Assembly: GCA_041659845.1 (NCBI GenBank) | Contig: JBAZXM010000004.1 | Span: 1 to 57,268 of the forward strand | Reading direction: 5' to 3' | Length of the DNA stretch: 57,268 nt | Source: Minisyncoccota bacterium | GTDB taxonomy: Bacteria > Patescibacteriota > Minisyncoccia > Phycocordibacterales > UBA9973 | Shown here: piece by piece, positions 5,081-51,779 of the stretch | Numbering within the stretch: the first letter of the stretch is position 1 | Layout of the letters: the number at the start of each line of letters is the position of its first letter | Made by a program: the position numbers and the translations under genes | Notes under the pieces: model-generated | Told to the model about the DNA's origin: nothing | Database searches by the model: none | What the model saw: the letters and a program-made list of their open reading frames with translations, nothing else

Positions 5081-5085
5081 ATGTA

Positions 5086-5478: not shown

Positions 5479-5506
5479 AAGTTCATTATACTCTTTTACT
5501 TTCTAA

Positions 5507-10035: not shown

Positions 10036-10094
10036 GTGTTACAGTAAGTATATCATATCCACAATGAGTTCTAGCTCAAATATCCACACCATTT

Positions 10095-10745
10095 ATGCTC
10101 TCTACTATATTTTCATTCCTATTTCCGGATTATTGCCTCGGCTGTCGCAAAAAAGGCGAACTTCTCTGTAAGTCATGCCTCGCACATGCACCGCACTCGC
10201 TTGAAGATGCCGGCGGGCTTAAAGCCGCAAACGCCCGAGCGATATTTGCATACAAGAATCCGGCAATTAAAAAAGCACTTCACTTCTTGAAATATAATCG
10301 CGCGCGGAGAATTGCCGATATTTTCGGCTTGTATTTGTATGAAGAAATGATTGAAGAAGTCGCAGAAGAGCTTTTACTGCATGGGGATAATCCCCTATTA
10401 GTTGTGCCTATCCCTCTATACTCGAAACGCTTGCGCGAGCGTGGATTCAACCAATCTGAATTACTCGCCCGATCATTCGCTAAATATAATTTGGAAAAGT
10501 TAATCGTTGAACCGAGTGTGCTTATAAAAACCCGCCAGACGAAAAACCAAATGGAGCTCAAGCGCCGCGAACGATTGGAAAATTTGGAGGGATGTTTTTC
10601 TATTAAAAGTCCGGAAACAATCCACGGCCACATAATCATCCTCATCGATGACATCATCACCACCGGCGCAACTATGCGCGAAGCGAAAAAAGTTCTCCTC
10701 CAATCCGGCGCACGAAAAGTAATCTGCTTGGCGGTGGCACATTAA
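10095..10745 (+). CDS. comF: ComF-family phosphoribosyltransferase (competence)
   Basis: 216 aa. N-terminal CLGC...CKSC zinc finger and C-terminal PRTase motif IILIDDIITTGAT. Divergent from the pil operon. Confidence 0.85.
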   Translation: MLSTIFSFLFPDYCLGCRKKGELLCKSCLAHAPHSLEDAGGLKAANARAIFAYKNPAIKKALHFLKYNRARRIADIFGLYLYEEMIEEVAEELLLHGDNPLLVVPIPLYSKRLRERGFNQSELLARSFAKYNLEKLIVEPSVLIKTRQTKNQMELKRRERLENLEGCFSIKSPETIHGHIIILIDDIITTGATMREAKKVLLQSGARKVICLAVAH

Positions 10746-10801: not shown

Positions 10802-10889
10802 GGAGACGTGTCGGAGTGGTCTAACGTACCTCCTTGCTAAGGAGGCAGGGTGAAAGCCCTCGCGAGTTCGAATCTCGCCGTCTCCGCCA
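10802..10889 (+). tRNA. tRNA-Ser (anticodon GCU), CCA encoded
   Basis: Hand-folded. Acceptor ggagacg/cgtctcc, anticodon arm cctcc-ttGCTaa-ggagg, long variable arm, T arm gcgag-ttcgaat-ctcgc, G73, cca. Confidence 0.9.
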
Positions 10890-10894
10890 AAATT

Positions 10895-10981
10895 GGAGGC
10901 GTGGATGAGTGGTTTAAATCAACGGTTTACTAAACCGTCGAACCTTAATCGGTTCCGTGAGTTCGAATCTCACCGCCTCCG
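10895..10981 (+). tRNA. class-II tRNA, Ser-like, apparent anticodon ACU
   Basis: Hand-folded. Acceptor ggaggcg/cgcctcc, D stem gat/atc, anticodon arm acggt-ttACTaa-accgt, variable arm gaacc/ggttc, T arm gtgag-ttcgaat-ctcac, G73, no encoded CCA. Confidence 0.75.
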
Positions 10982-11082
10982 CATTGACAACATGTTAGTT
11001 TTGATGACCCATTTAGTTAGGTACTAAGTGCGACCCACAAAGCTTCATGTTGTAATAAAAAGAACGACGATTGTCGTTCTTT

Positions 11083-22754: not shown

Positions 22755-25700
22755 TTAATAAGATGTTATCGAGCCTGGATCTGGAGCTGGCTCTGAAGCT
22801 GGCTCTGCATCAGGAATTGGTGATGGGTCGGGAGCAGCGGGTGGCGCTTCATCTACTGGCGGGGTATCTGATGGAGGAGTTGAATCAGATAGAGGTATTG
22901 AATCTGTGGTTGGTGTAGGATCTGGATTTGATGAAGGAATAGTAATTGGTGATATTGTTCCGCATTCCCCCGCCGTCTTTGCAAAGTCTCCATTTGTAAT
23001 CACTACGCAATAAATTTGTCCCGTGGCTGTGTCTTTGAATTCCACTCCATTTGTTTTAACAGTATTTGCAGTAATCGTCTCAGCAATAATATCTTTAACT
23101 CGCACAATGCCATTGATAATCTTCTCACCTGCATCAGCCAAGAATTGAGTGATGAGTGTTTTTAATTTTGAATTCCCTGTCCCGTCATCGAGAGTTTCTA
23201 ATCCTTTCAATCGAAGGTCGATCTCTTGAACAGATTTGATGAGTATCGGAGTGATGTCTTGGTAATTGATACCACGAGGAGTAGTACCATCTTCGTCGTA
23301 GAAGACGAGACGAGGATCAATAGTATTTACTTCTTCAGCAATTAGACCGAGGCGAAGATCATTGGTGTCGTTATAACGGAATGAGACTGGATGGAATTGT
23401 AAGAGTTCGTTAAGTCCAGCATCGAGATCGGTAATGTCGTGCTTCCATCTTTGTGATGATCCTCCGCAGGTTGTTCCTCTGGTGACTATCTGACCTGCTG
23501 TGGTGATACATAAGTAGTGGTCGGATCCTCCGGCATTGTCTGTGGTGAGGTTAAATAATGTGGTGTCTCCTGTTATGGTGAGACCGCCTTGATAAAGATT
23601 ATTTGCTGAGAAAGGAATGTAGTCGGTTTTACCGGAGGTCATAACGTCACTGGCTCCACTCTGTGCAACAGCTACAAAAACACCATTACCATAAGTGACA
23701 CCCATCCATGGATTATTTACAGCACTAGTGCGAGAAGTCCAAGTGATACCATCGGATGAAGTCATGACACGGTCACCCGTGCCAGTATTGGAAACCGCAA
23801 CAAACAGACCGTTGCCATAAGTAACACCAAGCCATTGATTATTTACAGCACTAGTGCGAGAAGTCCAAGTGATACCATCGGGTGAAGTCATAACGCGATT
23901 ACCTGTACCGTCAACAGAAACGGCAACAAAAAGACCATTACCATAGGTAACGGAACGCCAATCATTATCTGCAGAATTAACGCGAGAAGTCCAAGTGATA
24001 CCATCGGGTGAAGTCATGACGCAGTCCCCGGTGCAAGTATTGGAAACCGCAACAAAAAGACCGTTACCATAGGTAACGGAACGCCAATTATTACTCGCAG
24101 CACTAGTGCGAGAAGTCCAAGTGATACCATCGGGTGAAGTCATGACATTACCATTACCAGAAACTGCCACAAACAGTCCATTACCATATGTGACACTATT
24201 CCAACTATCGTCTGGAGCACCAGTACGGGAAGTCCAAGTGATACCATTAGGTGAAGTCATGACGCGATTGCCTGTGCCACTACTAGCCACAGCCACAAAC
24301 AAACCATTACCGTAAGTGACACTAGTCCAAGAGTTATCTGCCGCACTAGTACGAGATGTCCAATTGATACCATCGGGTGAAGTCATAACACCGTCTCCTG
24401 TGCCATTTATAGCAACAGCCACAAACAAACCATTACCGTAAGTGACACCGAGCCATTGATTATTTACAGAACCCGTTCTCGATGTCCACGCTGTTCCTTT
24501 TGAAATAATATTACCGACAACTACCAGTTTTTCTCCGGGGGTCGTGGTCCCGATGCCGACATTACCACCTCCGTTAAATATAGCATCGTAATGAGTTACT
24601 CCAGTTTTACTATTGTCATTATAAGTAGGACTAACCAATAGTGTTGTTAAGGATTGCGTATTTGCACCTGCAACAAGTGTAGGAGAGAATTTAATACCTA
24701 GTACAGTATCACTAGTTGTTGCTCTGCCAGTGATGGAAGTTCTGACAGTTAATCCTCCGACTTGATTGTTGTTTGTTGCAATAATAGAAGAATCAATATC
24801 AAGGAAAGATGCCGGGATATTGGTACCGATACCGACATTACCACCACTAAGGATAGTTAATCTTTCAGAGACGACACCCCCGGGAGCAGTCCACAAAGAA
24901 ATAGAGCTTCCCGCTAATCTTAAATCAGTAAAAGAATTTAAAATATCTACAGATCTAATATAACCAATACTACCCGCCACATCATAACCTAAATTTAAAT
25001 GTTTCCCTGTTGCCTCATTACCAAAACCTCCAGTGTCCCACGCAGGACCATTGCTAATATTTACAAGCCCTAAACTATCAATAAACATCTTTGTCGTTAA
25101 AGACTGCAGTGTTGTACCAGTTCCACCCGCAACAGAAGTCTGGAAAATAAGATTTCCCCCAAGAGCATTACCTGTCGCCTTACCTCCTGCAAAAGTGAAA
25201 TTACCTCCAGCAGTATCAGTACCAACAGCTCCTGTAGTATTAAAGGTAATTCCAGTTGGCTGAACACCTGAATTATTATCATTGGTTACACCTTGTCCAA
25301 AATAAGCTTGAGTGATTTTACCTGTACCTCCTCCACTATCTCCACCCATAACTAATTGATTAGAAGCAGTTGGTACTGAACCATAACCGACAGAAATAGA
25401 AGAATCAAATGTAGTAGCAATTGACCCAGCAAGAAATCCTATAGCTGTATTAAAATTACCTGTAGTATTGTTAAGCATTGCACCCATTCCCACAGCAGTA
25501 TTATCACCACCCGTATTTGCAAGGAGAGATTGATAACCCATAGCGGTATTACCATTTAAAGTAGTATTTGCAGTAAGAGCTTGATAACCTACAGCTGTAT
25601 TATTTAATCCAGTAGTATTAGCAGTAAGAGCTTGATAACCTACAGCAATATTCTGACCACCTGAAGTATTTGAACCAAGAGCAAAATAACCATTTGCAGT

Positions 25701-27260
25701 ATTATTGACACCAGTAGTATTTAAATTAAGAGCACCAGTACCAACAGCAACATTTTTATCTCCTGTGGTATTTGCTTTAAACGCTCTAAAACCAACAGCA
25801 GTGTTACTGCCCCCCGTCATTGTAAGATTTCCAGCATCAAGTCCTGCAAAGAAATTACTACCACCAAGAGTATGAAGAAGAGTTATACCACCCTGATAAA
25901 TAATACCAGAAGTTGCGGTGGTAGAAGGAAGAGCAAAATTTCCTGTGATTTCTAATTGTTGAGATGGAGTAGGAACACCTATACCGAAATTACCATTCGC
26001 AAGAAGCGTGGCTTTGGTCGTAAGTGTTTGCAGTGTAGTTCCTGTTGCTCCCGCATCTGAAGTTTGGAAAATGAGACTTCCCCCCACAGCATTACCTGTC
26101 GCTTTTCCGCCAGCGATAGTGAAGTTACCTCCAGCAGTGTTGAGTCCGAATGCACCTGTTGCATTAAACGTAATTCCATCGGGTTGGATTGCTTCATTTT
26201 GATCATTTATAACACCCTGCCCAAAATATGCATTAATAATTTTACCTAATCCTGCGCCTTCAGAGGCGCCAATTACTAACTGATTCGAAGCAGTCGCACT
26301 TGCTACTGAACCAATCATGATTGAATTAGAAATATCAACAGGAGAAAAAATTCCTGTAGCATATCCAATTCCTATATTATTACTTCCTGTAGTATTAAGA
26401 GTGAGGGCACTGACTCCAAGAGCTGTATTAAAATTACCCGTAGTATTTGCGAGGAGAGATTGATAGCCGTATCCCACATTACCAAATCCGGTAGTATTTG
26501 CGAGGAGAGATTGATAGCCTGTGGCAGAATTAGCATCTCCATCAATATTTGCAAAAAGAGCATTGGAACCAAAAGCGGTATTAAAATCTCCTGAAGTGTT
26601 TGAGTTAAGAGAATATGCTCCCATTGTCGTATTATCAACACCAACATCATTTGACGCGAGACCATTAACACCGACGGCTGTATTATTATTTCCTATTGTA
26701 TTGGCAAATAGTGCGGCGGCGCCAATAGCAGTATTTAATTGACCTGTTGTATTTGAAAGTAATGTATCAGTACCGATCGCTGTATTTCCTAGTCCTGAAG
26801 TAGTGCCGTTCATAGCTCCTTTACCTACGCTTAGATTAGCATTTACTGTATCTTGTTTTGCAAAAAATGCGCCGTTTAGATTGAGAGCTTTATTTGTATT
26901 ATCCCAAGTGAAATTCGTATTGTCTTGCGCGAGATTATTTGATGAGTCTACAAAAAGAATTGAACCTGAAGTTCCGGAAGTCACGGCATTGCCGATACCC
27001 ATACCGACAACGCTCCCCCAACTCGTCGTCGTGCCGTCAGTCGTCAAAAACTTTCCATTATTCCCGGTCTGAGTCGGCAAAATCTGCACAGTACACCCAG
27101 CTGACCCAGGGGTACAGTTCGGATCAAGTGTTTGACCGGGGGTGAAAGCAGCGAACAATGAAGTAGTAGCAGAGAATACTGCTAAAAAGGCAAGAGAAAA
27201 AGCTAGTTTTAAATTACTCTGAAAGAAATTTCTTATTTGACTGAAAAAGTGTTTCATCAT
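22755..27260 (-). CDS. giant secreted tail-fibre-like protein: Hep_Hag-like NTAxG repeats, duplicated ~300-aa module, 7 Asp-box propeller repeats, S74-type intramolecular chaperone domain, Pro-rich tail
   Basis: 1501 aa with a signal peptide. Repeats of NTAxGxxALxxNTTG. Seven repeats of WTSRTSAxxNxWxSVTYGNGLFVAV...VMTSPDGIT. SSQRWKHDITDLD...LGLIAEEV...INYQDITPILIKSVQE resembles the auto-cleaving C-terminal chaperone of phage tail fibres and endosialidases. Confidence 0.8.
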   Translation of the reverse strand: MMKHFFSQIRNFFQSNLKLAFSLAFLAVFSATTSLFAAFTPGQTLDPNCTPGSAGCTVQILPTQTGNNGKFLTTDGTTTSWGSVVGMGIGNAVTSGTSGSILFVDSSNNLAQDNTNFTWDNTNKALNLNGAFFAKQDTVNANLSVGKGAMNGTTSGLGNTAIGTDTLLSNTTGQLNTAIGAAALFANTIGNNNTAVGVNGLASNDVGVDNTTMGAYSLNSNTSGDFNTAFGSNALFANIDGDANSATGYQSLLANTTGFGNVGYGYQSLLANTTGNFNTALGVSALTLNTTGSNNIGIGYATGIFSPVDISNSIMIGSVASATASNQLVIGASEGAGLGKIINAYFGQGVINDQNEAIQPDGITFNATGAFGLNTAGGNFTIAGGKATGNAVGGSLIFQTSDAGATGTTLQTLTTKATLLANGNFGIGVPTPSQQLEITGNFALPSTTATSGIIYQGGITLLHTLGGSNFFAGLDAGNLTMTGGSNTAVGFRAFKANTTGDKNVAVGTGALNLNTTGVNNTANGYFALGSNTSGGQNIAVGYQALTANTTGLNNTAVGYQALTANTTLNGNTAMGYQSLLANTGGDNTAVGMGAMLNNTTGNFNTAIGFLAGSIATTFDSSISVGYGSVPTASNQLVMGGDSGGGTGKITQAYFGQGVTNDNNSGVQPTGITFNTTGAVGTDTAGGNFTFAGGKATGNALGGNLIFQTSVAGGTGTTLQSLTTKMFIDSLGLVNISNGPAWDTGGFGNEATGKHLNLGYDVAGSIGYIRSVDILNSFTDLRLAGSSISLWTAPGGVVSERLTILSGGNVGIGTNIPASFLDIDSSIIATNNNQVGGLTVRTSITGRATTSDTVLGIKFSPTLVAGANTQSLTTLLVSPTYNDNSKTGVTHYDAIFNGGGNVGIGTTTPGEKLVVVGNIISKGTAWTSRTGSVNNQWLGVTYGNGLFVAVAINGTGDGVMTSPDGINWTSRTSAADNSWTSVTYGNGLFVAVASSGTGNRVMTSPNGITWTSRTGAPDDSWNSVTYGNGLFVAVSGNGNVMTSPDGITWTSRTSAASNNWRSVTYGNGLFVAVSNTCTGDCVMTSPDGITWTSRVNSADNDWRSVTYGNGLFVAVSVDGTGNRVMTSPDGITWTSRTSAVNNQWLGVTYGNGLFVAVSNTGTGDRVMTSSDGITWTSRTSAVNNPWMGVTYGNGVFVAVAQSGASDVMTSGKTDYIPFSANNLYQGGLTITGDTTLFNLTTDNAGGSDHYLCITTAGQIVTRGTTCGGSSQRWKHDITDLDAGLNELLQFHPVSFRYNDTNDLRLGLIAEEVNTIDPRLVFYDEDGTTPRGINYQDITPILIKSVQEIDLRLKGLETLDDGTGNSKLKTLITQFLADAGEKIINGIVRVKDIIAETITANTVKTNGVEFKDTATGQIYCVVITNGDFAKTAGECGTISPITIPSSNPDPTPTTDSIPLSDSTPPSDTPPVDEAPPAAPDPSPIPDAEPASEPAPDPGSITSY
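23640..24500 (-). repeat. tandem coding repeats, period ~126 bp (7 units)
   Basis: gcactagtgcgagaagtccaagtgataccatcgg(g/a)tgaagtcat(g/a)ac recurs at 23722, 23848 and 24100, with diverged copies between. Confidence 0.85.
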
Positions 27261-34984: not shown

Positions 34985-35011
34985 TGTGATATAAGTATAT
35001 CACGCTTATTG

Positions 35012-35085
35012 TCCATCCTCCTGGACTCGAACCAGGGACCCTCGAGGTATAAGCTCGATGCTCTAACCAACTGAGCTAAGGATGG
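35012..35085 (-). tRNA. tRNA-Ile (anticodon UAU)
   Basis: Hand-folded reverse complement. ccatcct/aggatgg acceptor (C1:G72), TA-GCTC-agttggtta-GAGC, tcgag-ctTATac-ctcga, cctgg-ttcgagt-ccagg, A73. Confidence 0.8.
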
Positions 35086-37070: not shown

Positions 37071-37161
37071 AGTACGGTCAGTATACAATAAAATTAAGAA
37101 ATATGGAATAAAAATAAAATAAAAAAAGCGTGTGATGAATTACAGTATAAAACTGCAACCA

Positions 37162-39951
37162 TCACACGCTTTGTAGTATGGAATCATAAACAGGAATCTG
37201 TTTATGATATTTCTTCCAATACCCGTTGGCATCTTTATAATCCACACCCGGATTTTTTTTCAAAAACCCTGCAGTAAAATCATAAATCTCGCCCTTAAAG
37301 CCTCTTTCTCGAAGAGACTCGGTCAAAGTAATTGTATTCCTCTGCCCGGTCAATCCAACTTGGCGACCATCAGGACTTACCTTTTCTTTATCATAGTCAA
37401 AAGCGATTATGATATTCCCAGAAAACCCAGCAAGCAATTCGAAGAGAATTTTATTATTCACTCCGATGATTGCCGTCGCTGCTTTGATATCACTCTTTTG
37501 AAGGAAAGTATCAGCATCAATTGGCGCTTCTGTGACCAGAATATCAGTATTTCCCTCACTCATCGCTTTCGCCATATTAAAGGCGCCGTGCGGAATGTTG
37601 TGTATACCTTTCAAAAGTTTACGATGAAGCAAACCTTTAGGACACCGTGGGTCAACTGACCGCCCATAGAAACTGTCTATGATTCCTCCGAGTTCAAGCG
37701 GGTACGTTAATCGATTTTCAAGAATAGAATAAGGCAAACCCATCTCTTCGACAATCTTCCCATTAACTCTTTTGGGGATCGGCCGCATAAGATCACTTAG
37801 TGAATAGCCGTGTTGCTTTAACAAAGTGACAAGACCACTTCTTTCTGAGATCTTCGAGGAAATTCCTAGTAAACCATGATTGAGAAGCTCCTCATAACTA
37901 AACTTGCGCTCAAGCAATCCATGAATGAATCGCTCGTCTGCAAACCCTGCACCAATACTAAATGACATATCCGGATCAAGACCTCGTTCATTTCTAAGAT
38001 ACCGCTCCCCTTTACTTCCCTTGAATGCTTGCTGGAGAAGTTCTTGAGTATGGAGCATAATCTCTTGATGCCTAGTCGGAATAATCAACTTTTCTATTTC
38101 ATTACTCTGTACTCGCGCCGGTTTAATCAGAAGACGCACGTCATCTGGAATGGACGACTGCACAAACCTGCCAGCCACGCCGCAGCTAAAGCATTTAAAC
38201 ATACCCTTACTGAATGAAACTGATAGTGATGGAGAATCTTCATTATTATGCACAAAGCAACTTACAAATCCTCCACGCGCTCCATTAAATTCTCTTGATG
38301 CCTGTACTCTGCCATCTTTAATCGCTCCGAAAAGACGATCGAGATGCATTTCGCAAACCTCCTTACCATTATCCAAATCAACAATTTCAATAATCTTATG
38401 CTCATCCTTAAACTTCTCAGTTTGAAACTGGCTAATGATTGTAGCGAAGGTGCTCTTCGGAACTGATATGGTTTCAACTGAAGTAAGAATTTCTTCAAGC
38501 TTAGTTTGCAGACCATGATCGGATTTCTGAAGGGTGATAGGAGTGTCGGTATTCGTCATCAATTTAATGGCGTGATTCGCAAGTGCGTTGCCTGTATGCC
38601 TGATGAATGACCTCCTGCGAGCGCTTTTGAAGTTCGCAACGATTTGCTTTTCAAATGCGAGCTTGATTTCCTCCGGAGTTAAAACCACATCGTGAATAAT
38701 AAACTTCTCGGGTAATAGATACACAAGCTGGCCTTTAATGCTGAATGATTTCGTCTCCCAAATTTTCTCAATGTCTTCGATAGGAGCCTTTGACGCAAGA
38801 GCATGGGATAGCACCGCCATAGAAATGTATCTTCTGGCTTGAGCATCATGCTCTTTAAGCGGACGATCTCTTAATTCTTCAACATCCATGATATTCTGCT
38901 TGCCTTTGCGCCGCATCCCTTTCGGACCGTCGCCGACTGCAAACTTCCAATCACGAATCAGAAAACTAAGATGACCACCGAAGGTTCCTAACAGTTCATC
39001 CATAATGTGTCCGACTGAAGCAAATCTCTCTGTTGTCATTTTTCTAATGATGCGAGACTGTTCTTCTGTTGGAGCTTTTCCGTTAATGCCACTTAATTCA
39101 AGCACATCTAGCCTGCCTGCTCCGAGATCATATTCATACGGCAACATCGGCACCTCACGAAAGAAGTTTAAGTTTCCCGATAATTTATGAACAAGTTTAT
39201 AACAATCCAGAGCTGATGCCCAAGTCATGAGCGTTAAGAACGCCAAGCGTTCATCTTCAAGTACGCTGTGATTTATCACTTTCAGTAAGTGATCACCAAA
39301 AATCTTTTTCAGATTATTGCGAAATTTAAAAAATAACGGAGTATGTAATGGTAATATTTCTCCATGCATACCATCTTTTAACTCACACCATTGGTCAGTG
39401 ATCATCTCTATAAGCGCCTTCGCACGAGAACCTGTGTAACGCTTTTTATTCTCCGGAAATGTTTTTATTCCGGAAAATAAATCTTGCTCGTCATTTGCCT
39501 TAGGGAAAAGATTAAATTGCTTTGAGAAAGCATTTTTCTCTTTTTTCACCCGTCGAGGCGAATCAAGATTGATGAGATTGCCAAAGAAAAGTTCAGGTAT
39601 AGCCACATGCCCGATGACACCATAGTATCTGGTGCGATCATGGTGTGAAGACGCTGTTCCCTCTCCGGTAATAAGCTCATTAAGAGCGCGGAATAATTTG
39701 TTACTGTTGGATGTTCTTGAGATGTCTCCCCAGCTTACCTTGTGATCTTTTTCATAAATACTGAAACAAGTAGCAAGATATTCAAGCGCTTCGACTTTCG
39801 TATTCGCGCGAGCTGATTTTATGATTCCCTCTATGAGCAAATCCAGTTGATCCTGCTCAAATGCATGCCATACCCAAATCCTAAAATCCGGGGATGGTAT
39901 ACCTTTGATACCACTTGCGACTTCGTCCGCAGTAATAGGTGTGTACGACAT
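37162..39951 (-). CDS. fusion protein: unknown N-domain + RecB-like PD-(D/E)xK nuclease + DnaG-type primase core (CHC2 zinc finger, RNA-polymerase subdomain, TOPRIM)
   Basis: 929 aa. D282 (RLDVLEL), D334-x-K336 (IRDWKF) and Q371-x3-Y375 form the RecB-family motifs. C565-x2-H568-x18-C587-x2-C590. RYLRNERGLDPDMSFSIGAGFA and NRLTYPLELGGIIDSFYGR are DnaG-like. TOPRIM residues are E808 (ILVTEAP) and D852-x-D854 (AFDYDKE). No DnaB-binding C-terminus. Confidence 0.7.
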   Translation of the reverse strand: MSYTPITADEVASGIKGIPSPDFRIWVWHAFEQDQLDLLIEGIIKSARANTKVEALEYLATCFSIYEKDHKVSWGDISRTSNSNKLFRALNELITGEGTASSHHDRTRYYGVIGHVAIPELFFGNLINLDSPRRVKKEKNAFSKQFNLFPKANDEQDLFSGIKTFPENKKRYTGSRAKALIEMITDQWCELKDGMHGEILPLHTPLFFKFRNNLKKIFGDHLLKVINHSVLEDERLAFLTLMTWASALDCYKLVHKLSGNLNFFREVPMLPYEYDLGAGRLDVLELSGINGKAPTEEQSRIIRKMTTERFASVGHIMDELLGTFGGHLSFLIRDWKFAVGDGPKGMRRKGKQNIMDVEELRDRPLKEHDAQARRYISMAVLSHALASKAPIEDIEKIWETKSFSIKGQLVYLLPEKFIIHDVVLTPEEIKLAFEKQIVANFKSARRRSFIRHTGNALANHAIKLMTNTDTPITLQKSDHGLQTKLEEILTSVETISVPKSTFATIISQFQTEKFKDEHKIIEIVDLDNGKEVCEMHLDRLFGAIKDGRVQASREFNGARGGFVSCFVHNNEDSPSLSVSFSKGMFKCFSCGVAGRFVQSSIPDDVRLLIKPARVQSNEIEKLIIPTRHQEIMLHTQELLQQAFKGSKGERYLRNERGLDPDMSFSIGAGFADERFIHGLLERKFSYEELLNHGLLGISSKISERSGLVTLLKQHGYSLSDLMRPIPKRVNGKIVEEMGLPYSILENRLTYPLELGGIIDSFYGRSVDPRCPKGLLHRKLLKGIHNIPHGAFNMAKAMSEGNTDILVTEAPIDADTFLQKSDIKAATAIIGVNNKILFELLAGFSGNIIIAFDYDKEKVSPDGRQVGLTGQRNTITLTESLRERGFKGEIYDFTAGFLKKNPGVDYKDANGYWKKYHKQIPVYDSILQSV

Positions 39952-39953
39952 AA

Positions 39954-40035
39954 TGCCTCCTTTTTTTAGAATTGGTTTAATTTTTTAAATATCAGATTTG
40001 AACAAATACTACAGTAATTTAGGGGGATGTCAAAT
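39954..40035 (-). promoter_or_regulatory. promoter/5'UTR cassette copy A (TTGACA-N16-TAGTAT, ~50-nt leader, AAAGGAGG RBS)
   Basis: -35 at 40028-40033 and -10 at 40006-40011, read on the minus strand. About 94% identical to 40656-40736. Confidence 0.7.
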
Positions 40036-40054
40036 TATCGAAACACTGTGAACA

Positions 40055-40090
40055 AAAATAAAAACGCTCACAGTTTCGTGAGCGTTTTTT
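40055..40090 (-). terminator. intrinsic terminator after the 186-aa gene
   Basis: acgctcac-agtttc-gtgagcgt, flanked by A and T tracts. Confidence 0.75.
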
Positions 40091-40091
40091 A

Positions 40092-40652
40092 CTATAACTT
40101 CATATGATTTCTTTTTATGGGCGTTTCGTCGAGATGTTTGAGAAAGTGTGGAAGAAGTTCTAAAACTTTACCAGTTTCAGTATCTAAATCTATTTCAAAA
40201 TACTTTACAAAGTCTTCATGATTATCTTTGTGAGATTTTTTAGAATCCATTGAAATTAGATTGAGATCCCATATAGTGGAAAGAATTATTGCTTCGCAAA
40301 CTTCGTGCTTAAAGCCGGCAAGAGTAATACTTGCATTTGCTGAAATTTTCACAGAAGCGACACTTTTTACCCTCTCTGTAGTTTTTTCGTAGAGAAACTT
40401 TTTCAATAATTTTCGTTTCCCATAATTTCTCAATAAATTTTCTGCATCTTCTGCATAGCCTGCATACAACTCAAGATAAGCCATTCTGTCTGAGTACTGA
40501 GAACCGATGGTTATTTTAGCGAGGCTATGGCCATATTGGTCACTGATAGATAAGTGCGCAACTGGATCCTTTGGAACAAAAGATAGTTTTCTTAAATACT
40601 CAATTTTTGAGATTATTGAACTTACTGTTGCAATTATTTCTTTTATATTCAT
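40092..40652 (-). CDS. hypothetical protein (orphan, 186 aa)
   Basis: ORF with a strong RBS, its own promoter copy and its own terminator. No recognisable motif. Confidence 0.6.
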   Translation of the reverse strand: MNIKEIIATVSSIISKIEYLRKLSFVPKDPVAHLSISDQYGHSLAKITIGSQYSDRMAYLELYAGYAEDAENLLRNYGKRKLLKKFLYEKTTERVKSVASVKISANASITLAGFKHEVCEAIILSTIWDLNLISMDSKKSHKDNHEDFVKYFEIDLDTETGKVLELLPHFLKHLDETPIKRNHMKL

Positions 40653-40655
40653 CTT

Positions 40656-40736
40656 TGCCTCCTTTTTTAGAATTGGTTTAATTTTTTAAATATCAGATTT
40701 GAACAAATAATATAGTAATTTTGGGGAATGTCAAAT
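40656..40736 (-). promoter_or_regulatory. promoter/5'UTR cassette copy B (TTGACA-N16-TATTAT, leader, AAAGGAGG RBS)
   Basis: -35 at 40729-40734 and -10 at 40707-40712, read on the minus strand. Near-identical to copy A. Confidence 0.7.
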
Positions 40737-40773
40737 AAAAAACACCATTCGAAAATGGTATTTTTTATTTTTG

Positions 40774-41162
40774 TGGAGATGTCGAGAATCGAACTCGAAT
40801 GCAAAAGATATTTTAAAGAGGGTCTACATACTTAGATTATTTTTTGTTTTAGGTGGTTCGCGTGAGAAATAAACAAAACCGCGAAACACCGATTCTCTGC
40901 AATCTCAAAATCAAAGCGAGAAAGACTTTGACTTCCAGTCCGAAAATATAATACCTCATTCCTTTTTTCGGACAGAAAAAGAAGAGATACCAGATTGGCT
41001 TAAATTAAGCGAATGCTGGAGCAAAATCAAACTTACCGAAGTAAGGAGATTTTACCTTTGCGACTTTGTTTGCATTTAGTCTTTTGTACATTTTTTACAA
41101 GATCTGTACGAACTTGATATGCGCTCTTTAAAGGGTATAAATTGTCTAGGCCGATCATCCCC
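40774..41162 (-). ncRNA. ssrA: tmRNA (SsrA)
   Basis: 5' GGGGATGATCGG pairs with 3' CATCTCCA, including the G3:U pair. T arm tcgag-ttcgatt-ctcga. Internal tag ORF GCA AAC AAA ... TTC GCT TAA. Adjacent to smpB. Followed by a terminator at 40737-40768. Confidence 0.88.
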
Positions 41163-41163
41163 A

Positions 41164-41607
41164 TTAATTTTTCAAGGTTCTTTGCAATTCACGCTCGGTA
41201 TCGCGCTTCTTTATCGTCTCGCGCTTATCAAACTGCTTCTTCCCGCGTGCGACTGCAATGCTTACTTTAACCTTACGCCCTTTATTATACATTGCAAGTG
41301 GCACAATTGTCAACCCTTTCTTTGAATCAATATCTGCGAGTAGAATTATCTCCTTTTTCATCAAAAGAAGCTTGCGTGTACGATCCGGGTCATACTCTTT
41401 AGGCGTATTAGCAGGCTGATACGGCGGTATATGCATACCTACTATATATGCCTCCCCTCCGCGCACTATTATATGAGCGCCTTCAAGCGAGCCCTGGCCG
41501 CCTTTAATAGCCTTGACTTCAAAGCCAAGCAACTCAATCCCGGCTTCGTATTTTTCCAGGAACTCGTAGTTGAAGTGCGCTTTTTTATTAGTGATAAAAT
41601 TAGACAT
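41164..41607 (-). CDS. smpB: SsrA-binding protein SmpB
   Basis: 147 aa. NKKAHFNYEFLEKYEAGIELLGFEVKAIK and KLLLMKKEI motifs. Confidence 0.92.
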   Translation of the reverse strand: MSNFITNKKAHFNYEFLEKYEAGIELLGFEVKAIKGGQGSLEGAHIIVRGGEAYIVGMHIPPYQPANTPKEYDPDRTRKLLLMKKEIILLADIDSKKGLTIVPLAMYNKGRKVKVSIAVARGKKQFDKRETIKKRDTERELQRTLKN

Positions 41608-42460: not shown

Positions 42461-42489
42461 TTGACAGTATTTCAAATATGGGTTAGTAT
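42461..42489 (+). promoter_or_regulatory. sigma70-type promoter TTGACA-N17-TAGTAT
   Basis: Consensus -35 and a near-consensus -10, about 235 nt upstream of ATG 42723. Confidence 0.6.
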
Positions 42490-42722
42490 CTCTCCTGCAC
42501 TGTTCTTTATAAAACGTCATAAACTTTTTTCGCTTGCACGTGACGTTGTTCGTTTGTGGGAAGCACACAGGATATTTGCAAAAGTATTTTGTGTGCTTTT
42601 CATTTGGTGAATAACGCGCGCAGATAGCCAATGAGAACCGTCCGAGCTTTACGTGAAAGCCGATCAAATTTCATTACCGAATCCGTTCAAACAAAAGCGG
42701 GTTTAAAAAACAAAAAAAGTTT

Positions 42723-43490
42723 ATGAAAAAAATCACAAGCATCACAGCAAAAGTTGTAAGTCTAAGAATCTTCTTAGCAATTTTCATCGCCAGATTAGTG
42801 GCATCAATCAGTGAAACTAAATTCCCGGGAATAACTACGGCTACACCCGTATTAGCAGAAGGAAATACTGCTCCTGATGGAACATTGATGATCGACGACA
42901 CGAACCCTAAAAGTCCGTTAGCAGGTATGAATGAAAATAATGCCGACAGTGAAATGATAAAAACCCTGGGACTTGATAATTTTACACCACTACAATTGGT
43001 GAAAAAATCCTCAGATGAAAGCAACCAGAACCAGTACAGCTTGAATAAAGCATATGAAAATCTGGCTCGCAAATACAAAGGGTTTGTTGCATTATTTATT
43101 CCAGTACTTGCAATGATCACCCAGTATTTCAACGCTGCAGTGACATTCTTAACGAATGTTGTTGCAACTTTCATCGAGAAAGGATGGAATGTTGTGGCAT
43201 TGGTATTGCCTGTGAACGTTAACCTGGAGTTAATCTGGGATGCTGCTCAAAATAACGGGCACAACTTAATGATCGCGAAAATAACCAGTGATGATGAAGT
43301 CATCATCCAATGTGATGCTCAAAGATTCGAATTAGCAAAAACCGGCTTATACGAAGCATTGAAAAATATCGGTAAGGTGCACCTAGACGAGAAGAATTTT
43401 TCTTTCACTCTGGAAACACAACAATCGATTGAAGAAGTTACTGCCTGTGTAAAACAATATGTAACTGAATCTGCTTCAGTAACTGCCTAA
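42723..43490 (+). CDS. hypothetical membrane/secreted protein (orphan, 255 aa)
   Basis: N-terminal signal/anchor and a central hydrophobic segment (FVALFIPVLAMITQYFNAAVTFLTNVVATFI). Terminator at 43523-43549. Confidence 0.55.
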   Translation: MKKITSITAKVVSLRIFLAIFIARLVASISETKFPGITTATPVLAEGNTAPDGTLMIDDTNPKSPLAGMNENNADSEMIKTLGLDNFTPLQLVKKSSDESNQNQYSLNKAYENLARKYKGFVALFIPVLAMITQYFNAAVTFLTNVVATFIEKGWNVVALVLPVNVNLELIWDAAQNNGHNLMIAKITSDDEVIIQCDAQRFELAKTGLYEALKNIGKVHLDEKNFSFTLETQQSIEEVTACVKQYVTESASVTA

Positions 43491-43644
43491 GTTTTAAATT
43501 ACGCATACAATATGCGCGCAAACCCCCCTTATTTATAAGGGGGGTTTTTACTTGACTTTTTTATAATATTGTGATAATATATATGAAGTAGATCACACGA
43601 GTTGATCTTATCTTTAACAAACAAATACTAAAAAAGGAGGCAAA

Positions 43645-44520
43645 TTGAAAAATCAATCACTACCAGCTGTATCTTTTGAATTAGGAAAACTAATAAAAGT
43701 AAAAGACAGCGAGGAAAAAATCGTGCCTGCGATAAATAATCCAGGCAATCCACAGGTTTATTCGTATAACTACGAAATTATTTTTACACCTGTCGGAAAA
43801 TTGGGATTAGGAAAATATGAACTTAAAGTTGCCGTTAGTTCGAAAGAAAAGGACAAAATCTTCTGCATTGCAGTTGATGGGAACAAACATGTGAGTTTAA
43901 GAAAAATGCTCCCTACAGATGAAGAGGGTGTAGAATATTGCAAAACTAAAATCATGGTGAAGGAAGGAAATGACAAAACACATCACACTGAGCCGGTTGA
44001 AAACAATATTCGCTTCCTCAGAATACTAGGGAAGGGTGCGATGGAGTTATGGGAAGTAGCACTCATTTCACAAGGCGGTTCATTTTTTATCACCGCTCAA
44101 TGTGTGTACAATTTCAGATGCTATCGTAACAACAATGATGGTGTACTTTGTCCACAATTTGAAAGGTGGCCTGAAATGATTGTCCTTGTAGAATCCCTAA
44201 TACTCCTCTATGGTGATGTGAAAGAATTACCATCCATTAATGGATACATGCCAAAGAAAAATAAGGTGGATGGTTTTAATGGGCAGCTTGATGAAAAAAC
44301 TGCAATTACAGATTGGTTTAATCTTGTAAATGGTTACGGAGCAGCTCGTAGCCGTTTCGGGGCCAGAAGAGTTCATTGGTCAGAATTGCCTAAAAGGAAA
44401 GGTTTGGCATTTTTATTAAAAAATGAAAAATTTATCTACAAAAAGGCGATTCTTCCTAAAAACACAAAAGCCAATAAGACTGCTTTCAAAAGAGAGTTGG
44501 TGGGTTGTTCTTTAATTTAA
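43645..44520 (+). CDS. hypothetical protein with degenerate cold-shock-like C-terminal segment (orphan, 291 aa)
   Basis: TTG start 6 nt after AAAAGGAGG. Own promoter TTGACT-N17-TAATAT (43552-43580) and terminator (44550-44578). C-terminal DWFNLVNGYGAA...RVHWSEL. Confidence 0.6.
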   Translation: MKNQSLPAVSFELGKLIKVKDSEEKIVPAINNPGNPQVYSYNYEIIFTPVGKLGLGKYELKVAVSSKEKDKIFCIAVDGNKHVSLRKMLPTDEEGVEYCKTKIMVKEGNDKTHHTEPVENNIRFLRILGKGAMELWEVALISQGGSFFITAQCVYNFRCYRNNNDGVLCPQFERWPEMIVLVESLILLYGDVKELPSINGYMPKKNKVDGFNGQLDEKTAITDWFNLVNGYGAARSRFGARRVHWSELPKRKGLAFLLKNEKFIYKKAILPKNTKANKTAFKRELVGCSLI

Positions 44521-46348: not shown

Positions 46349-47716
46349 TTATTCACAGTCTAAAACCACGACTTCTCCCTTAATTGGTACGTAAGCCTCA
46401 AGAGCCAAATAATCCTTAACCTTTTGCGCAAAATACAGAGATGATTTCGGCTCACCCATAACAACAAAAATTTTCTTTACACTCTCAGCCACATCTTGTG
46501 CAAAATTTAGAAGCCCATCAGAATCTTTGTGGCCTGAATATCCACCAATGGTGACAATTTTTGCTTTTACATCAACATATTCTCCTTTAATCTTTATAGA
46601 TTTCGCTCCTTCTTGAATTAGGCGTCCCATCGTACCTAAAGACTGATACCCTGTCAAAAGAATGGTGTTGTTAGGATTCGGTAGATAATTATGTTCATGG
46701 TGGACTATGCGCCCGCCATTCGACATACCGGAACCAGCAATGATAATTTTTGGATTAGGTGCATCGATGATCATCTTTGATTCCTCGGTACGTAGTGTCG
46801 AACGAAGCCCTGGGAAAGTAAATATATCATCGCCAGAATGAATTATATCTTTAGCTGTATCATTGAAGTAATCTTCAAATTCTTTATATATCTTTGTCAA
46901 TCGGATTGCCAATGGAGAATCGAAAAAAATTGGCATCGTGGGAATCTTCTTGTTTTCAACAAGGCCATCAATTTCAAAAAGAAGTTCCTGACTGCGTTCA
47001 AGAGAGAATGTCGGAACAATCAGCGTGCCTTTATTCTTATAATTATCTTCGATTACTTCTTCCAGCTTCTTACGGCGCTCATGACGATCTTCGTGATTGC
47101 GATCTCCATAAACACTTTCCATAATCAGATAATCAACCCCTTCCAGTTTTTCTGTGTCGCGAAGCAGTGGTGATGGCGAATTACCGAGATCTCCTGTAAA
47201 GACTATTTTTTTACCATTATAAGTGAATTCAATCATGGCTGACCCAAGAATATGCCCTGCATCGAGTAGTCTTGCGGTGAGTCCTTCCGTGATTTTTATA
47301 GTATCGTGATAAGGGAAGCCCTCCCATAAACCGATAATCTGATGAACAATTTCTTTAGTAAAGAAATCATGTACACTCTGTTCATGATATTTAGAAAGTA
47401 TAAACACAGTGTCATCAAGCATGGGTTCGGCGAGAGCTTTGGTCGGTATGGTGGAATAAATTTTTCCATGGAAGCCATCATGGATTAGTTTCGGAATCCT
47501 GCCTACATGGTCAACGTGAGCGTGAGTGACAAAAAGAATATCGATAGATGTCGGATCGTACTGGAATGGCTCCCAGTTCTCATCATCAGCGAGCTTGGTA
47601 CCCTGCGAGAGTCCGCAGTCAACTAGAATTTTTTTACCTTCAACTTCTAATAGAAAATTGGCCCCTGTTACAGAACCCGCCCCACCGCAAAATGTTAGTT
47701 TTAATTTCTTTTCCAT
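46349..47716 (-). CDS. MBL-fold beta-CASP ribonuclease/hydrolase
   Basis: 455 aa. HAHVDHVGRIP motif 2, with beta-CASP and C-terminal RNA-specificity-like regions. Confidence 0.8.
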   Translation of the reverse strand: MEKKLKLTFCGGAGSVTGANFLLEVEGKKILVDCGLSQGTKLADDENWEPFQYDPTSIDILFVTHAHVDHVGRIPKLIHDGFHGKIYSTIPTKALAEPMLDDTVFILSKYHEQSVHDFFTKEIVHQIIGLWEGFPYHDTIKITEGLTARLLDAGHILGSAMIEFTYNGKKIVFTGDLGNSPSPLLRDTEKLEGVDYLIMESVYGDRNHEDRHERRKKLEEVIEDNYKNKGTLIVPTFSLERSQELLFEIDGLVENKKIPTMPIFFDSPLAIRLTKIYKEFEDYFNDTAKDIIHSGDDIFTFPGLRSTLRTEESKMIIDAPNPKIIIAGSGMSNGGRIVHHEHNYLPNPNNTILLTGYQSLGTMGRLIQEGAKSIKIKGEYVDVKAKIVTIGGYSGHKDSDGLLNFAQDVAESVKKIFVVMGEPKSSLYFAQKVKDYLALEAYVPIKGEVVVLDCE

Positions 47717-49049: not shown

Positions 49050-51779
49050 CTATTTTTGTTCATATTTTCCAAATATCTCCGCTTCGACTTCTTCGCGGTC
49101 ACGGCCGTATTTAAGATAGGAAAGCTCTTTTAATTTGTCGATGATTTCTCTATTACCTTCTGGATTTTTAGCAGTCACCATATTGAATGGTTTTGATGCT
49201 GGTGCTCCATTGATAATCATGCTGACATAAGCATTATAATTTTCGAGTTTAATAATATCTGACGAAGTAAATGTTGGAGAAAATTTCGGCTCCAAAACTT
49301 TCGCATCTTCCGGTGAGACACGGAAAACCGCCATTGACCCCACATTACCAAAAACAGCATTTTTGATTTCATCAGTAAGTTGAGCGATGTATTGGTGAGC
49401 AACATTGAGAGACAAGCGATACTTGCGCGCTTCGGAAAGGATTGAGGCTATTGAAGGTGTTGTGACATTTTGAAATTCATCGATATACAGATAAAAGTCA
49501 TTCATCTTCTGCCCGAACATATCCACGCGAGATAGCGCTGCCATCTGGATTTTACCGACAAGAATGAGGCCGATCAAATTGGCATTGATATCGCCAAGTC
49601 TGCCTTTTGAAAGATTCACGAGTAATATCTTTTTCTCATCCATAATCTTTCTGAAATTAAGTGAGGAATGTTGCTGAGCAATAACCGGACGCATGATGTC
49701 GTTGGAAATAAGCGGATCAAACTTACTCGAAATATACGGCACAAAATTTGCAAGCCCTTGATCGCCGGTTGTCTTTTCAGCAGTTTCCCAGAATTGCCTG
49801 ATAATAGGATTTCTACAATGCGAAAGTTTCATGTCGCGGAATTCTTTGTCGGCCAAGACACGCGTTACCTCAAGCAAAGTTGAGCCTGACTCCGGATGTT
49901 CCATCACTAGGAACGCAGAGTTTTTGAAATACTGCTCGAACATCGCCCCGCCGGAAATTTTCAAATCAAAGAGCTGGTTGAAAATATTCATCATTTCATT
50001 CACCACAAAAGTCTTTTGCTCCGGATAATTTGGATCATATTCAAGCATATTGAGCCCCATTGGCCGCGCAGTGTAAGCCGGATCGAAATAAATCACATCA
50101 TCAATGCGCTCCGGCGGAATGTATGAAAGAATGTCTTGAATATCCGATCCGTGGGGATCGATGAAACAACAGCCATCACCATTTGCAATATCTTGAGCGA
50201 TTAAGTTTTTCAAAATTGAAGTTTTACCCGTACCTGTCTGTCCAACGACATATAAGTGGCGTACACGGTCTTCGCGTGCCATTCGGATCTCTGTGCGAAC
50301 TCCACGGAAATCATTGTAGCCAAGTAATATCCCATCCTTACCCATTTCAAGCGGAGCTGGACCTTCCCCAGCGCGTGCAGTCTTTAATTGCGGAGTACTG
50401 CCTACGCCCAATGGAAAATGGAAAACAGTTGCCAATTCTTTCAAATTAAGAGGTATTTCTTTACCTTCATCAATTGTTCGATAGGAAAAATTATGAGTGA
50501 ATTCCTTTATCTTTTTGTCTTCAATTTTTTTGAAAATGAATTTATTACTGCCGGCTTCAGCAAATTGGTTGAAGGCAGATTCAAGCTCCACCACAATCTC
50601 TTCGGCTCGTGATTTCGTCTCAGCTCCAGCAAGTACCCGGATGTGAGACGACATAATCGTGGACTTCATCTTTTCAGTGATATGCGCGACTGCAATCTCA
50701 TCAATCTTTTTTTCTTCTTCTTTTTTCTTATCATGGGTGCCAAAAATAAGGTGCTTCACCGCGCCGGCAAATTGTCTGTCGAATTCACCGAATAATTCAG
50801 AAGCTTTCTTAAAATCCATACCTTCTTTCACTTTTTGCAGTATGCTTGTGAATTTCTTTATGAATTTGTCGCCTGTAGGAGTGATTATAATCTGAATTGC
50901 CGCACCTTCACCTTTGGTTTTCATCTTGGAAAATACCGAAAGCATAGTTTGGATGGGATCGTGATCAATAGATTCGTATGTCTTTATCGGAAGTACTTCA
51001 CTCTCAGCAAGCTCTGCGTATGCACCTGACGCCACTCCCCCATCAGAGAAAATATTGTAATCATCCGTAACTTCGCGAATTTTCGCCCCACCGTAAAGCC
51101 CGAGTACTTGCTTCTCGAAGAGCGTAGCGGAAATAGAAGGCACAGAAGCATAGAAAACCACGTGGTCACTATCACCGGAAAGCGCGATCTCAAGCGTATA
51201 ATAATTTTTGGCGTAATTTTCCGGATCACTGCCTACTGATTGCATGCCTGCATAGAACTGCTCCATCATGGAAATAAATTCTTTGATTGGACGCTTATCA
51301 TCTTCCAGTTTTTCAGGCAGTGTAATTTCAAAAAGCTTCATATGGAGCGCTTTAAAAAGCGGAGTACCTTCTTTAAGAGATGGGACTGTTGCAGATTGGA
51401 TATATTGAATAAGAAAGCGATGAAAGTCATCATCCAAATGAGGATTGCCTATTTTCATGACTATTTCAAGAGCATTTTTAATCCCATTCGTTAAAAGGAT
51501 ACCTAAGAGTTCTTCCATCTTCGTATCGTGACTTTCTGGGCGCAGACGCAAAACAATATTCGCCGATTCTTCTTCGGGAATTATCTGTGTTTTAGGCAAC
51601 ACCTGCTCCTTGGGCAATATCGCATATTCCTTAACAACTTCATGTGCTGCGACCTCGGGCTTATTATGCCCACTTTCAATCAGAGCTTTTTCTCTCTCGG
51701 CAATATGGGCGCGCAGAAATTGCAATTCCTCTTCAGGAGATTTGAATTTGGGAATTTCCTTTGTAAAAAGGTTTTCCAT
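49050..51779 (-). CDS. large soluble FtsK/HerA/VirD4-like P-loop ATPase (T4SS coupling-protein-like C-terminal half)
   Basis: 909 aa. Walker A VVGQTGTGKTS, Walker B LYIDEFQN, and RKYRLSLNVAHQYIAQL. No N-terminal TM helices. Confidence 0.7.
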   Translation of the reverse strand: MENLFTKEIPKFKSPEEELQFLRAHIAEREKALIESGHNKPEVAAHEVVKEYAILPKEQVLPKTQIIPEEESANIVLRLRPESHDTKMEELLGILLTNGIKNALEIVMKIGNPHLDDDFHRFLIQYIQSATVPSLKEGTPLFKALHMKLFEITLPEKLEDDKRPIKEFISMMEQFYAGMQSVGSDPENYAKNYYTLEIALSGDSDHVVFYASVPSISATLFEKQVLGLYGGAKIREVTDDYNIFSDGGVASGAYAELAESEVLPIKTYESIDHDPIQTMLSVFSKMKTKGEGAAIQIIITPTGDKFIKKFTSILQKVKEGMDFKKASELFGEFDRQFAGAVKHLIFGTHDKKKEEEKKIDEIAVAHITEKMKSTIMSSHIRVLAGAETKSRAEEIVVELESAFNQFAEAGSNKFIFKKIEDKKIKEFTHNFSYRTIDEGKEIPLNLKELATVFHFPLGVGSTPQLKTARAGEGPAPLEMGKDGILLGYNDFRGVRTEIRMAREDRVRHLYVVGQTGTGKTSILKNLIAQDIANGDGCCFIDPHGSDIQDILSYIPPERIDDVIYFDPAYTARPMGLNMLEYDPNYPEQKTFVVNEMMNIFNQLFDLKISGGAMFEQYFKNSAFLVMEHPESGSTLLEVTRVLADKEFRDMKLSHCRNPIIRQFWETAEKTTGDQGLANFVPYISSKFDPLISNDIMRPVIAQQHSSLNFRKIMDEKKILLVNLSKGRLGDINANLIGLILVGKIQMAALSRVDMFGQKMNDFYLYIDEFQNVTTPSIASILSEARKYRLSLNVAHQYIAQLTDEIKNAVFGNVGSMAVFRVSPEDAKVLEPKFSPTFTSSDIIKLENYNAYVSMIINGAPASKPFNMVTAKNPEGNREIIDKLKELSYLKYGRDREEVEAEIFGKYEQK

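Follow-up and report, generated by a model that had tools for sequence, protein, structure and literature searches.

A Duplicated Promoter-Leader-Shine-Dalgarno Cassette Upstream of an ORFan and a Long DnaG-Type Primase Gene in a Groundwater Patescibacterium

Two nearly identical copies of an apparently complete expression signal lie on the minus strand of contig JBAZXM010000004.1 of a Minisyncoccota bacterium, a stretch of 57,268 nt that was analyzed at full length and is called the window here. One copy (39954-40035, 82 nt, copy or cassette A) stands directly upstream of ORF929, an open reading frame (ORF) encoding a long DnaG-type primase, while the other (40656-40736, 81 nt, copy or cassette B) stands upstream of ORF186, an adjacent ORFan. 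It is probable, in our judgment, that this direct repeat arose by local two-copy duplication of one complete signal, copy A being the primase gene's own and copy B a recent copy placed on ORF186. Both copies end in a perfect Shine-Dalgarno (SD) sequence, a feature found upstream of only three genes in the window.

Extent and Copy Number of the Repeat

The original prediction, which had been made by reading this DNA without database searches, described two near-identical cassettes of ~82 bp, and alignment, a repeat finder, and gapless comparison all recover them. When aligned, the copies differ by four substitutions and by one nucleotide in the length of an A-run (a T-run on the plus strand). 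The repeat finder reports 39962-40035 and 40663-40736 as a family of 74 nt with 95% identity and a spacing of 701 nt. With zero to three mismatches allowed, a scan of the window for the 44-nt leader string returns exactly two occurrences, versus 0.00 expected from 100 shuffles. Read on the minus strand, the repeat has the form ATTTGACAT...GGAGGCA, starting 2-3 nt ahead of the -35 box and ending just after GGAGGCA. The 100-nt flanks of the two copies are unrelated (gapless identity of 30% upstream and 37% downstream); the repeat is therefore bounded by the -35 box and GGAGGCA, and its extent is exactly one expression signal.

The assembly was checked independently with the Logan unitigs (k=31) of the source run, which reproduce the two-copy structure and rule out an assembly artifact. 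Unitig depth is 8.69 across 38500-39991, 7.6 across 39979-40692, and 7.3 from 40680 onward. The unitigs break inside each cassette, and the collapsed 47-nt unitig at 40663-40709 has a depth of 18.8, ~2.4x that of its neighbors. From the graph and the depth of the shared unitig it follows that the repeat is real and present in about two copies in the organism. A variant arrangement with a loose end at 40652 was rejected, as it rested on a short match of <90% identity from an unrelated organism, one of several such matches on the region. Searches with nhmmer and blastn-short of the window and of seven related loci found no further full copy of the cassette, the only additional match being partial and 26 nt long. 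Leader cores of 26-30 nt have no exact match in GTDB genomes (one per species), JGI metagenome contigs, or IMG/VR.

Predicted Promoter, Leader, and Transcription Units

The copied signal would comprise a sigma70-type promoter, a ~48-nt unstructured, A/U-rich 5′ untranslated region, an A-run, and a perfect SD (Table 1). A motif scan found the same elements that had been read from the sequence originally (TTGACA, a 16-nt spacer, TAGTAT or TATTAT, an identical leader, and a ribosome-binding site). TTGACA-16-TAGTAT agrees with the promoter consensus at 10/12 positions and TTGACA-16-TATTAT at 11/12, values that express consensus match only. Counted from the predicted transcription start sites, the leader of ~48 nt contains no ATG and is followed by A6-7, AAGGAGG, and, 4-5 nt on, the ATG. 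Folding of the 61-nt leader RNA, a check proposed with the original prediction, gave minimum free energies (MFE) of -0.9 and -1.9 kcal/mol for the two copies, with 175-187 of 200 shuffled sequences folding at least as well (z +1.0 to +1.3); the leader is thus less structured than its shuffled controls. No Rfam family matches the cassettes at the gathering score or at E<=1, inspection by eye revealed no convincing palindrome, and the cassettes carry neither terminal inverted repeats nor palindromic structure. With no stable or conserved structure and no match to a curated family, they fall outside the structured cis-regulatory RNAs (riboswitch, thermometer, or attenuator). As read from the sequence, the properties of the leader fit an open ribosome-loading region and not a riboregulator.

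The minus-strand order at the locus is smpB, tmRNA, terminator, cassette B, ORF186, terminator, cassette A, ORF929, terminator, ftsH. A terminator had been placed between the two units from the start, and the hairpin found there is strong, with a 13-bp stem and a 4-nt loop. The terminators upstream of copies A and B lie outside the repeat and are mutually unrelated. ORF186 and ORF929 are each predicted to be monocistronic and insulated by terminators, and independent transcription from duplicated control regions, as first proposed, is the natural in silico reading of these predicted promoters and terminators. Three runs hold or accompany the sequence, all of them DNA.

The Two Genes Downstream of the Cassettes

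ORF186 is an ORFan in the strict sense, as had been claimed. Its only match is to itself, both among 5.8 billion clustered proteins and in an exhaustive phmmer search over 1.84 billion representatives; Pfam, PHROGs, and PADLOC return nothing, and tblastn finds neither a counterpart in the loci of relatives nor a paralogue in the window. Its coding score is 0.133 in frame versus -0.15 to -0.43 in the other five frames, with a minimum of 0.114 among confident genes. At 0.33, its GC content is lower than that of any other ORF tested; confident reference genes have a mean of 0.42 and go down to 0.353. The product has no transmembrane segment and looks soluble; a single-sequence AlphaFold model (predicted local distance difference test score, pLDDT, of 38) is unusable.

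The label "nuclease-primase" originally given to ORF929 stands in its second half. Residues ~545-860 hold a CHC2 zinc ribbon, an RNA-polymerase domain, and Toprim; PF01807 (CHC2) is present in 7/7 family members and Toprim_2/Toprim_3 in most. The family profile matches Aquifex DnaG (2au3) with E=4e-12, and Foldseek aligns ORF929 with DnaG catalytic cores at E=4e-9 to 1e-5 (TM-score ~0.57-0.59, normalized to target). The C-terminal half is a DnaG-type primase. Residues 1-540 form a conserved region confined to a small Patescibacteria family, with D282 and W335-K336 among its invariant residues, the latter inside a [DA]WKFAVGD motif, and no sequence match in Pfam or the PDB. The sole nonprimase fold matches of this region are MGME1 and Cas4-family proteins, at nonsignificant E=0.34-0.9 and probability <0.3, in a part of the model with pLDDT 60-85. 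The nuclease half of the label is therefore a hint only, the invariant D...DWK motif and these fold matches pointing to a possible PD-(D/E)xK nuclease. The family is small and known only from Patescibacteria metagenome-assembled genomes (MAGs), with members in Nomurabacteria (48%), Paceibacterota (46%), and Saccharibacteria (30-40%) as well as Minisyncoccia and Yanofskybacteria; the closest relatives come from Parcubacteria MAGs (Nomurabacteria and Paceibacterota).

SD Scarcity and a Third SD-Led Gene

The upstream regions of the 53 main ORFs in the window were scored for anti-SD pairing. Only ORF929, ORF186, and ORF291 (3/53) are SD-led, each at -11.6 kcal/mol, with the next best gene at -7.5. 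The same three are retrieved when any alternative start within 60 codons is allowed, a rescan by which start-codon misannotation was rejected as the cause of the SD-less calls. About 14 of the 53 ORFs have a TATAAT-like box (often TGnTATAAT) <=13 nt before the start codon, a leaderless-type layout; leaderless-type or SD-less examples are 860-1672, 2814-4016, 5086-5478, 46349-47716, and 49050-51779, all on the minus strand. Operon-internal genes on the contig simply lack an SD. The layout suggests that leaderless mRNAs are widespread on the contig. Among Parcubacteria 16S genes, only 48% were found to contain the anti-SD motif (PMC9297842), and SD-independent initiation is therefore a known trait of the group. 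For the three GGAGG sites we infer SD function from their sequence and position.

ORF291, the third member, has its own unit on the plus strand, in the order terminator, promoter, leader, SD, gene, terminator. Its leader is ~58 nt long with a 5′ hairpin (z=-2.1), and a 26-nt module immediately upstream of its start codon (AAACAAATACTAAAAAAGGAGGCAAA, 43619-43644) shares 92% identity with the 3′ terminus of cassette B (blastn E=1e-4), the shared pattern being AAAC[C/A]AAT[T/A]CTAAAAAAGGAGGCAAA. ORF291 returned only itself in the search of 5.8e9 clusters and is, like ORF186, an orphan.

Primase Orthologues and the Direction of Copying

Orthologues of the primase in other Patescibacteria (29-49% identity) have different gene neighbors in every lineage. 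Most nonetheless carry their own TTGAC -35, a -10 of GTAGTAT/GTAATAT type, and an A/T-rich leader of 45-70 nt. When an SD is taken to be GGAGG or AGGAG located 3-9 nt ahead of the start codon, 6 of 14 independent lineages have an SD-led primase, versus ~15 of 150-280 other ORFs in these loci (~5-10%), which makes the feature enriched, not universal. The Fisher P for this enrichment ranges from 1e-4 to 3e-3 when the window is counted and from 2e-3 to 2e-2 when it is excluded, according to the ORF denominator chosen; the survey of relatives covers loci of 6-15 kb, that of the window the 57-kb contig. In the orthologue loci, the primase stands out from its SD-less neighbors as the sole SD-led gene or as one of a very small number. 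Stand-alone leader-plus-SD expression of the primase appears from this comparison to be old, so that cassette A is likely the source from which cassette B was copied. The -10 context CTGTAGTAT found in one orthologue (L003) is likewise preserved in copy A, and copy B deviates from it.

Significant conservation of the leader sequence in relatives was not found; the architecture is conserved instead. MAFFT alignments of orthologous leaders were suggestive, but with an nhmmer profile built from orthologue leaders only, the cassette comes 13th in the window (E=42). The reverse search, with the cassette against the related loci, returned only hits of E=0.029 and E=1.4, mostly driven by the promoter hexamers. 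In the locus of the closest relative (L001), the only other strongly SD-led gene encodes an AIRS/AIRS_C-domain protein (4823-5950, +; AAAAAAGGAGGAAAAATCATG), possibly a further member of the SD-led class.

Origin of the Cassette Pair and Alternative Explanations

In the explanation we favor, copy A would most likely be the ancestral expression signal of the primase gene and copy B a recent copy now driving the adjacent low-GC ORF186. Either the signal was duplicated or the ORFan unit was inserted by homologous recombination through the cassette. ORF186 and the primase gene would then each have a transcript of their own, started at nearly the same promoter, and both would be translated via the same open, SD-dependent initiation region. 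The identity of the leaders would mainly reflect the recency of the copy together with a role as an unstructured ribosome-loading region, with neither a folded riboregulator nor a demonstrable operator.

Several points weigh against this explanation. The nearest primase is 49% identical and not syntenic, no closely related genome shows the preduplication state, and none is recoverable from the orthologue loci, which are not syntenic. The comparative evidence for copying from A to B is weak. A functional anti-SD is assumed, the 3′ end of the organism's 16S not being on the contig, and the transcription start sites, termination, and SD use are predictions from consensus. Furthermore, the four substitutions are confined to the 28 nt of the promoter part, the ~52-nt leader having none (P≈0.014). 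This skew may indicate extra constraint or gene conversion acting on the leader, beyond recency, and could also reflect tuning of the two -10 boxes.

The same skew is a residual hint in favor of the explanation offered originally, in which the leader is kept identical by a shared operator or RNA-level site (read by a protein, a small RNA, or a ribosome-state sensor) that co-regulates ORF186 and the primase. We regard co-regulation as unlikely, though the likeliest of the alternatives. The 26-nt 3′ module is common to the third SD-led gene, ORF291, and the sole three SD-led genes of 53 could form a class responsive to anti-SD availability, comparable to Flavobacterium rpsU (PMC9976891, PMC7797042). 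However, the leader is unstructured (z ~+1.1), has no Rfam match, and shows no convincing palindrome by eye, the profile from orthologous leaders misses the cassette (E=42), and no regulator gene is evident nearby. An identity of 95% is, moreover, what a young duplication would show without constraint; with cassettes that agree at 95% over 82 nt, recent copying alone would account for identical leaders. The proposed operator or RNA element is not supported.

The alternatives that treat the repeat as mobile or dispersed DNA fare less well. In one, the 701-bp unit entered as circular or foreign DNA by homologous recombination with the primase cassette and can leave in the same way, much as phage promoter-early stem-loop (PeSL) cassettes or morons do. 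ORF186 is exactly bracketed by the direct repeats, its unit has its own promoter and terminator, and its GC of 0.33 (gene mean 0.42) and lack of homologues would suit an arrival from elsewhere. Excision would formally agree with the de Bruijn graph (rec1-R-rec2-R-rec5), and there is precedent in PeSL cassettes, which flank ORFans and form mini-circles in T4-type phages (PMC2839356). The identical 47-nt core is longer than the k=31 of the unitigs, and a recombinant junction would add no new k-mers to them. This origin is nevertheless decidedly unlikely. The 57-kb contig carries two copies only and no further ORFan flanked by cassettes, the ORF186 unitig has the depth of its flanks (7.6) and hence no sign of a deletion or circle subpopulation, and the surroundings are those of a cellular genome, lacking phage and integrase genes in the vicinity, with no known donor sequence. 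That the cassette is a dispersed intergenic repeat (a repetitive extragenic palindrome, a miniature inverted-repeat transposable element, or a generic strong-promoter consensus) present here twice by chance is barely credible and largely refuted. The AT-rich intergenic location and the partial 26-nt match at a third gene would agree with it, but the shared unitig is ~2.4x as deep as its flanks and not tens of times, no extra copies occur in the window (<=3 mismatches, nhmmer) or in the public collections searched, and terminal inverted repeats and palindromic structure are absent. The original prediction had named a common dispersed repeat as the finding that would overturn it; two copies by depth, and none in the GTDB, JGI, and IMG/VR scans, are what was found. 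Very improbable too is a genomic island ending at the ssrA 3′ end, with the repeat as an att-like duplication. The tmRNA gene is a classic integration hotspot, and ORF186 lies directly downstream of it. This account is disfavored by a repeat that does not overlap ssrA, by the lack of a second tmRNA 3′ end in the window, of any other flanking repeat within 11 kb, and of an integrase, and by downstream genes that are the primase and ftsH.

Genomic Context

The contig was assembled from a groundwater metagenome run of 2022 and is a chromosome fragment of an uncultivated groundwater Patescibacterium, cellular and not viral. Its genes include those for S8, L6, S5, SecY, Adk, Map, IF3, NDK, RecG, AcrB, a type IV pilus cluster, and a sortase. 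A phage origin was rejected on the grounds of this housekeeping content and the lack of any megablast match in 50,697 phage records. The coordinates of the features at and around the cassettes are collected in Table 1.

Table 1. Features of the cassette locus and of the third SD-led unit (window coordinates; promoter, start-site, SD, and terminator assignments are predictions)
Feature	Position	Strand	Evidence or remark
Primase unit			
ORF929, 929 aa, DnaG-family primase	37162..39951	-	Domains, profile, fold matches
Hairpin + T-run overlapping the primase stop codon; would separate primase from ftsH	37120..37172	-	Free energy (dG) -16.7 kcal/mol
Cassette A, 82 nt, predicted to drive primase (ATG at 39951)	39954..40035	-	Alignment, motif scan
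Cassette A, -35 TTGACA	40033-40028	-	
Cassette A, -10 TAGTAT	40011-40006	-	16-nt spacer from -35
Cassette A, putative transcription start site	near 39999	-	Consensus prediction
Cassette A, A7 run + SD AAGGAGG	SD 39962-39956	-	
ORF186 unit			
Intrinsic terminator after ORF186 (13-bp stem, 4-nt loop, T-run); would insulate primase unit	40050..40089 (stem 40089..40060)	-	dG -17.2 kcal/mol
ORF186, 186 aa	40092..40652	-	In-frame coding statistics gene-like
Cassette B, 81 nt, predicted to drive ORF186 (ATG at 40652)	40656..40736	-	Alignment, motif scan
Cassette B, -35 TTGACA	40734-40729	-	
Cassette B, -10 TATTAT	40712-40707	-	16-nt spacer from -35
Cassette B, putative transcription start site	near 40700	-	Consensus prediction
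Cassette B, A6 run + SD AAGGAGG	SD 40664-40658	-	
Upstream genes			
Terminator after tmRNA; ends 2-3 nt before cassette B -35 box	40738..40768	-	dG -13.3 kcal/mol
tmRNA (ssrA), directly upstream of cassette B	40771..41162	-	Rfam RF00023, 114 bits
smpB	41164..41607	-	PF01668, 2e-50
Third SD-led unit			
Terminator-insulated unit of orphan ORF291 (43645-44520, TTG start at 43645)	43552..44520	+	Promoter scan, SD score
ORF291 promoter TTGACT-17-TAATAT	43552-43580	+	Promoter scan

Upstream of the cassettes, the end of smpB and the start of the tmRNA gene are 1 nt apart. The sole perfect 12/12 promoter in a scan of 34-46 kb (TTGACA-18-TATAAT, 41284-41313, minus strand) lies within the smpB coding sequence, ~120 nt upstream of the tmRNA 5′ end (41162), and is probably a dedicated, embedded ssrA promoter. 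On the other side of the primase, a tRNA-Ile gene (anticodon TAT) is found at 35011-35085 (-), just downstream of ftsH. Between the locus and ORF291, a canonical promoter (TTGACA-17-TAGTAT, 42461-42489, +) is followed by ~230 nt without a convincing ORF, a stretch that folds at an MFE of -75.3 versus -49.7±4.4 kcal/mol for shuffles (z=-5.8) and contains a ~22-bp hairpin with a T-run near 42551-42597. Rfam returns nothing for it at E<=1, and the region 42461-42725 (+) may be a novel structured leader or small RNA preceding an unannotated 255-aa ORF (42723-43490).

Other features of the window lie farther away. Tandem tRNA-Ser genes at 10802-10982 (+) have the anticodons GCT and ACT, an A34 serine tRNA being unusual. 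The intergenic region 10036-10094 holds two ATATCCACA motifs resembling DnaA boxes, situated between the divergent pilM (8914-10035, -) and a phosphoribosyltransferase-domain gene (10095-10745, +). A 661-aa protein (14549-16534, -) displays an ice-binding-like domain (PF11999, E=6e-52). The 1501-aa ORF at 22755-27260 (-) contains internal repeat arrays with periods of 51 nt (17 aa) and 126 nt and a Peptidase_S74 (endosialidase-chaperone) domain, which suggests a fiber- or adhesin-like surface protein.

Significance and Comparison with Known Systems

A duplicated promoter and leader, taken alone, is routine genome evolution. The cassette pair looks like an ordinary and recent copying of an expression signal, and like a clean case of an ORFan gaining the ready-made signal of its neighbor. 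Of greater interest is the rare SD-led class, three genes against ~50 SD-less ones, with the primase showing the same contrast in distant relatives, in a phylum whose translation initiation is poorly understood. A speculative extension, plainly unlikely at present, is that a perfect SD on an open, A/U-rich leader constitutes a separate, conditionally used translation channel for a few genes in SD-poor, largely leaderless Parcubacteria, with the long primase heading the set and newly arisen or acquired ORFans such as ORF186 and ORF291 joining it by copying the module, a logic that would be akin to that of rpsU in SD-blind Flavobacteriia. If this were true, the duplicated cassette would make visible one step by which a minimal "SD regulon," linking replication priming to the state of the ribosome, gains members. 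Should SD-led initiation be a reserved, regulated route, the locus would supply natural test constructs (one cassette, two genes, and a partial third copy) and would point to replication priming as a controlled process.

Among described systems, the closest likeness is to PeSLs, regulatory cassettes of T4-type phages (Arbiol et al. 2010, PMC2839356; Comeau et al. 2014, PMC4122927). In both cases an intergenic cassette is repeated, with a strong sigma70-like promoter at its 5′ end and an SD and start codon at its 3′ end. Both stand upstream of ORFans and of a replication gene, the phage g43 polymerase being bordered by PeSLs, and direct repeats bracket an ORFan such that recombination could delete or circularize it. 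The differences are equally clear. Two copies are present here versus ~50 per phage genome, and the setting is a cellular Patescibacteria chromosome instead of a phage hyperplastic region. The stem-loops here lie outside the repeat and are mutually unrelated, the repeated part being a promoter with a long unstructured leader.

A phage moron, by comparison, is a gene that has inserted between two others together with a promoter and terminator of its own. ORF186 resembles one as a seemingly autonomous promoter-gene-terminator unit of deviant, low GC located between ssrA and the primase gene. It differs in lying outside any phage or prophage and in having a promoter apparently copied from a neighbor and not brought along. 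The locus works like a PeSL or a moron and is a member of neither; two features that define PeSLs, a stem-loop in the repeat and many copies, are lacking.

With regard to translation, the nearest parallel is the occurrence of rare SD-bearing genes in lineages that are otherwise "blind" to the SD, as described for rpsU in Flavobacterium johnsoniae (PMC7797042, PMC9976891, PMC13000453). Even the anti-SD motif went undetected in some Parcubacteria (PMC9297842). The apparent likeness consists in a nearly SD-free genome context, in very few genes with an extended, perfect SD, and, for 6 of the 14 lineages, in an SD on the key gene. Here, however, the organism is a Patescibacterium and the key gene encodes a DnaG-type primase, not bS21.

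Expression of a primase gene is also the theme of the macromolecular-synthesis operon rpsU-dnaG-rpoD of E. coli, in which dnaG is kept low. Likeness ends with the gene expressed, and the logic is opposite. In contrast to that operon, the primase of this Patescibacterium would be monocistronic and has the strongest signal of the promoter-plus-SD type on its contig.

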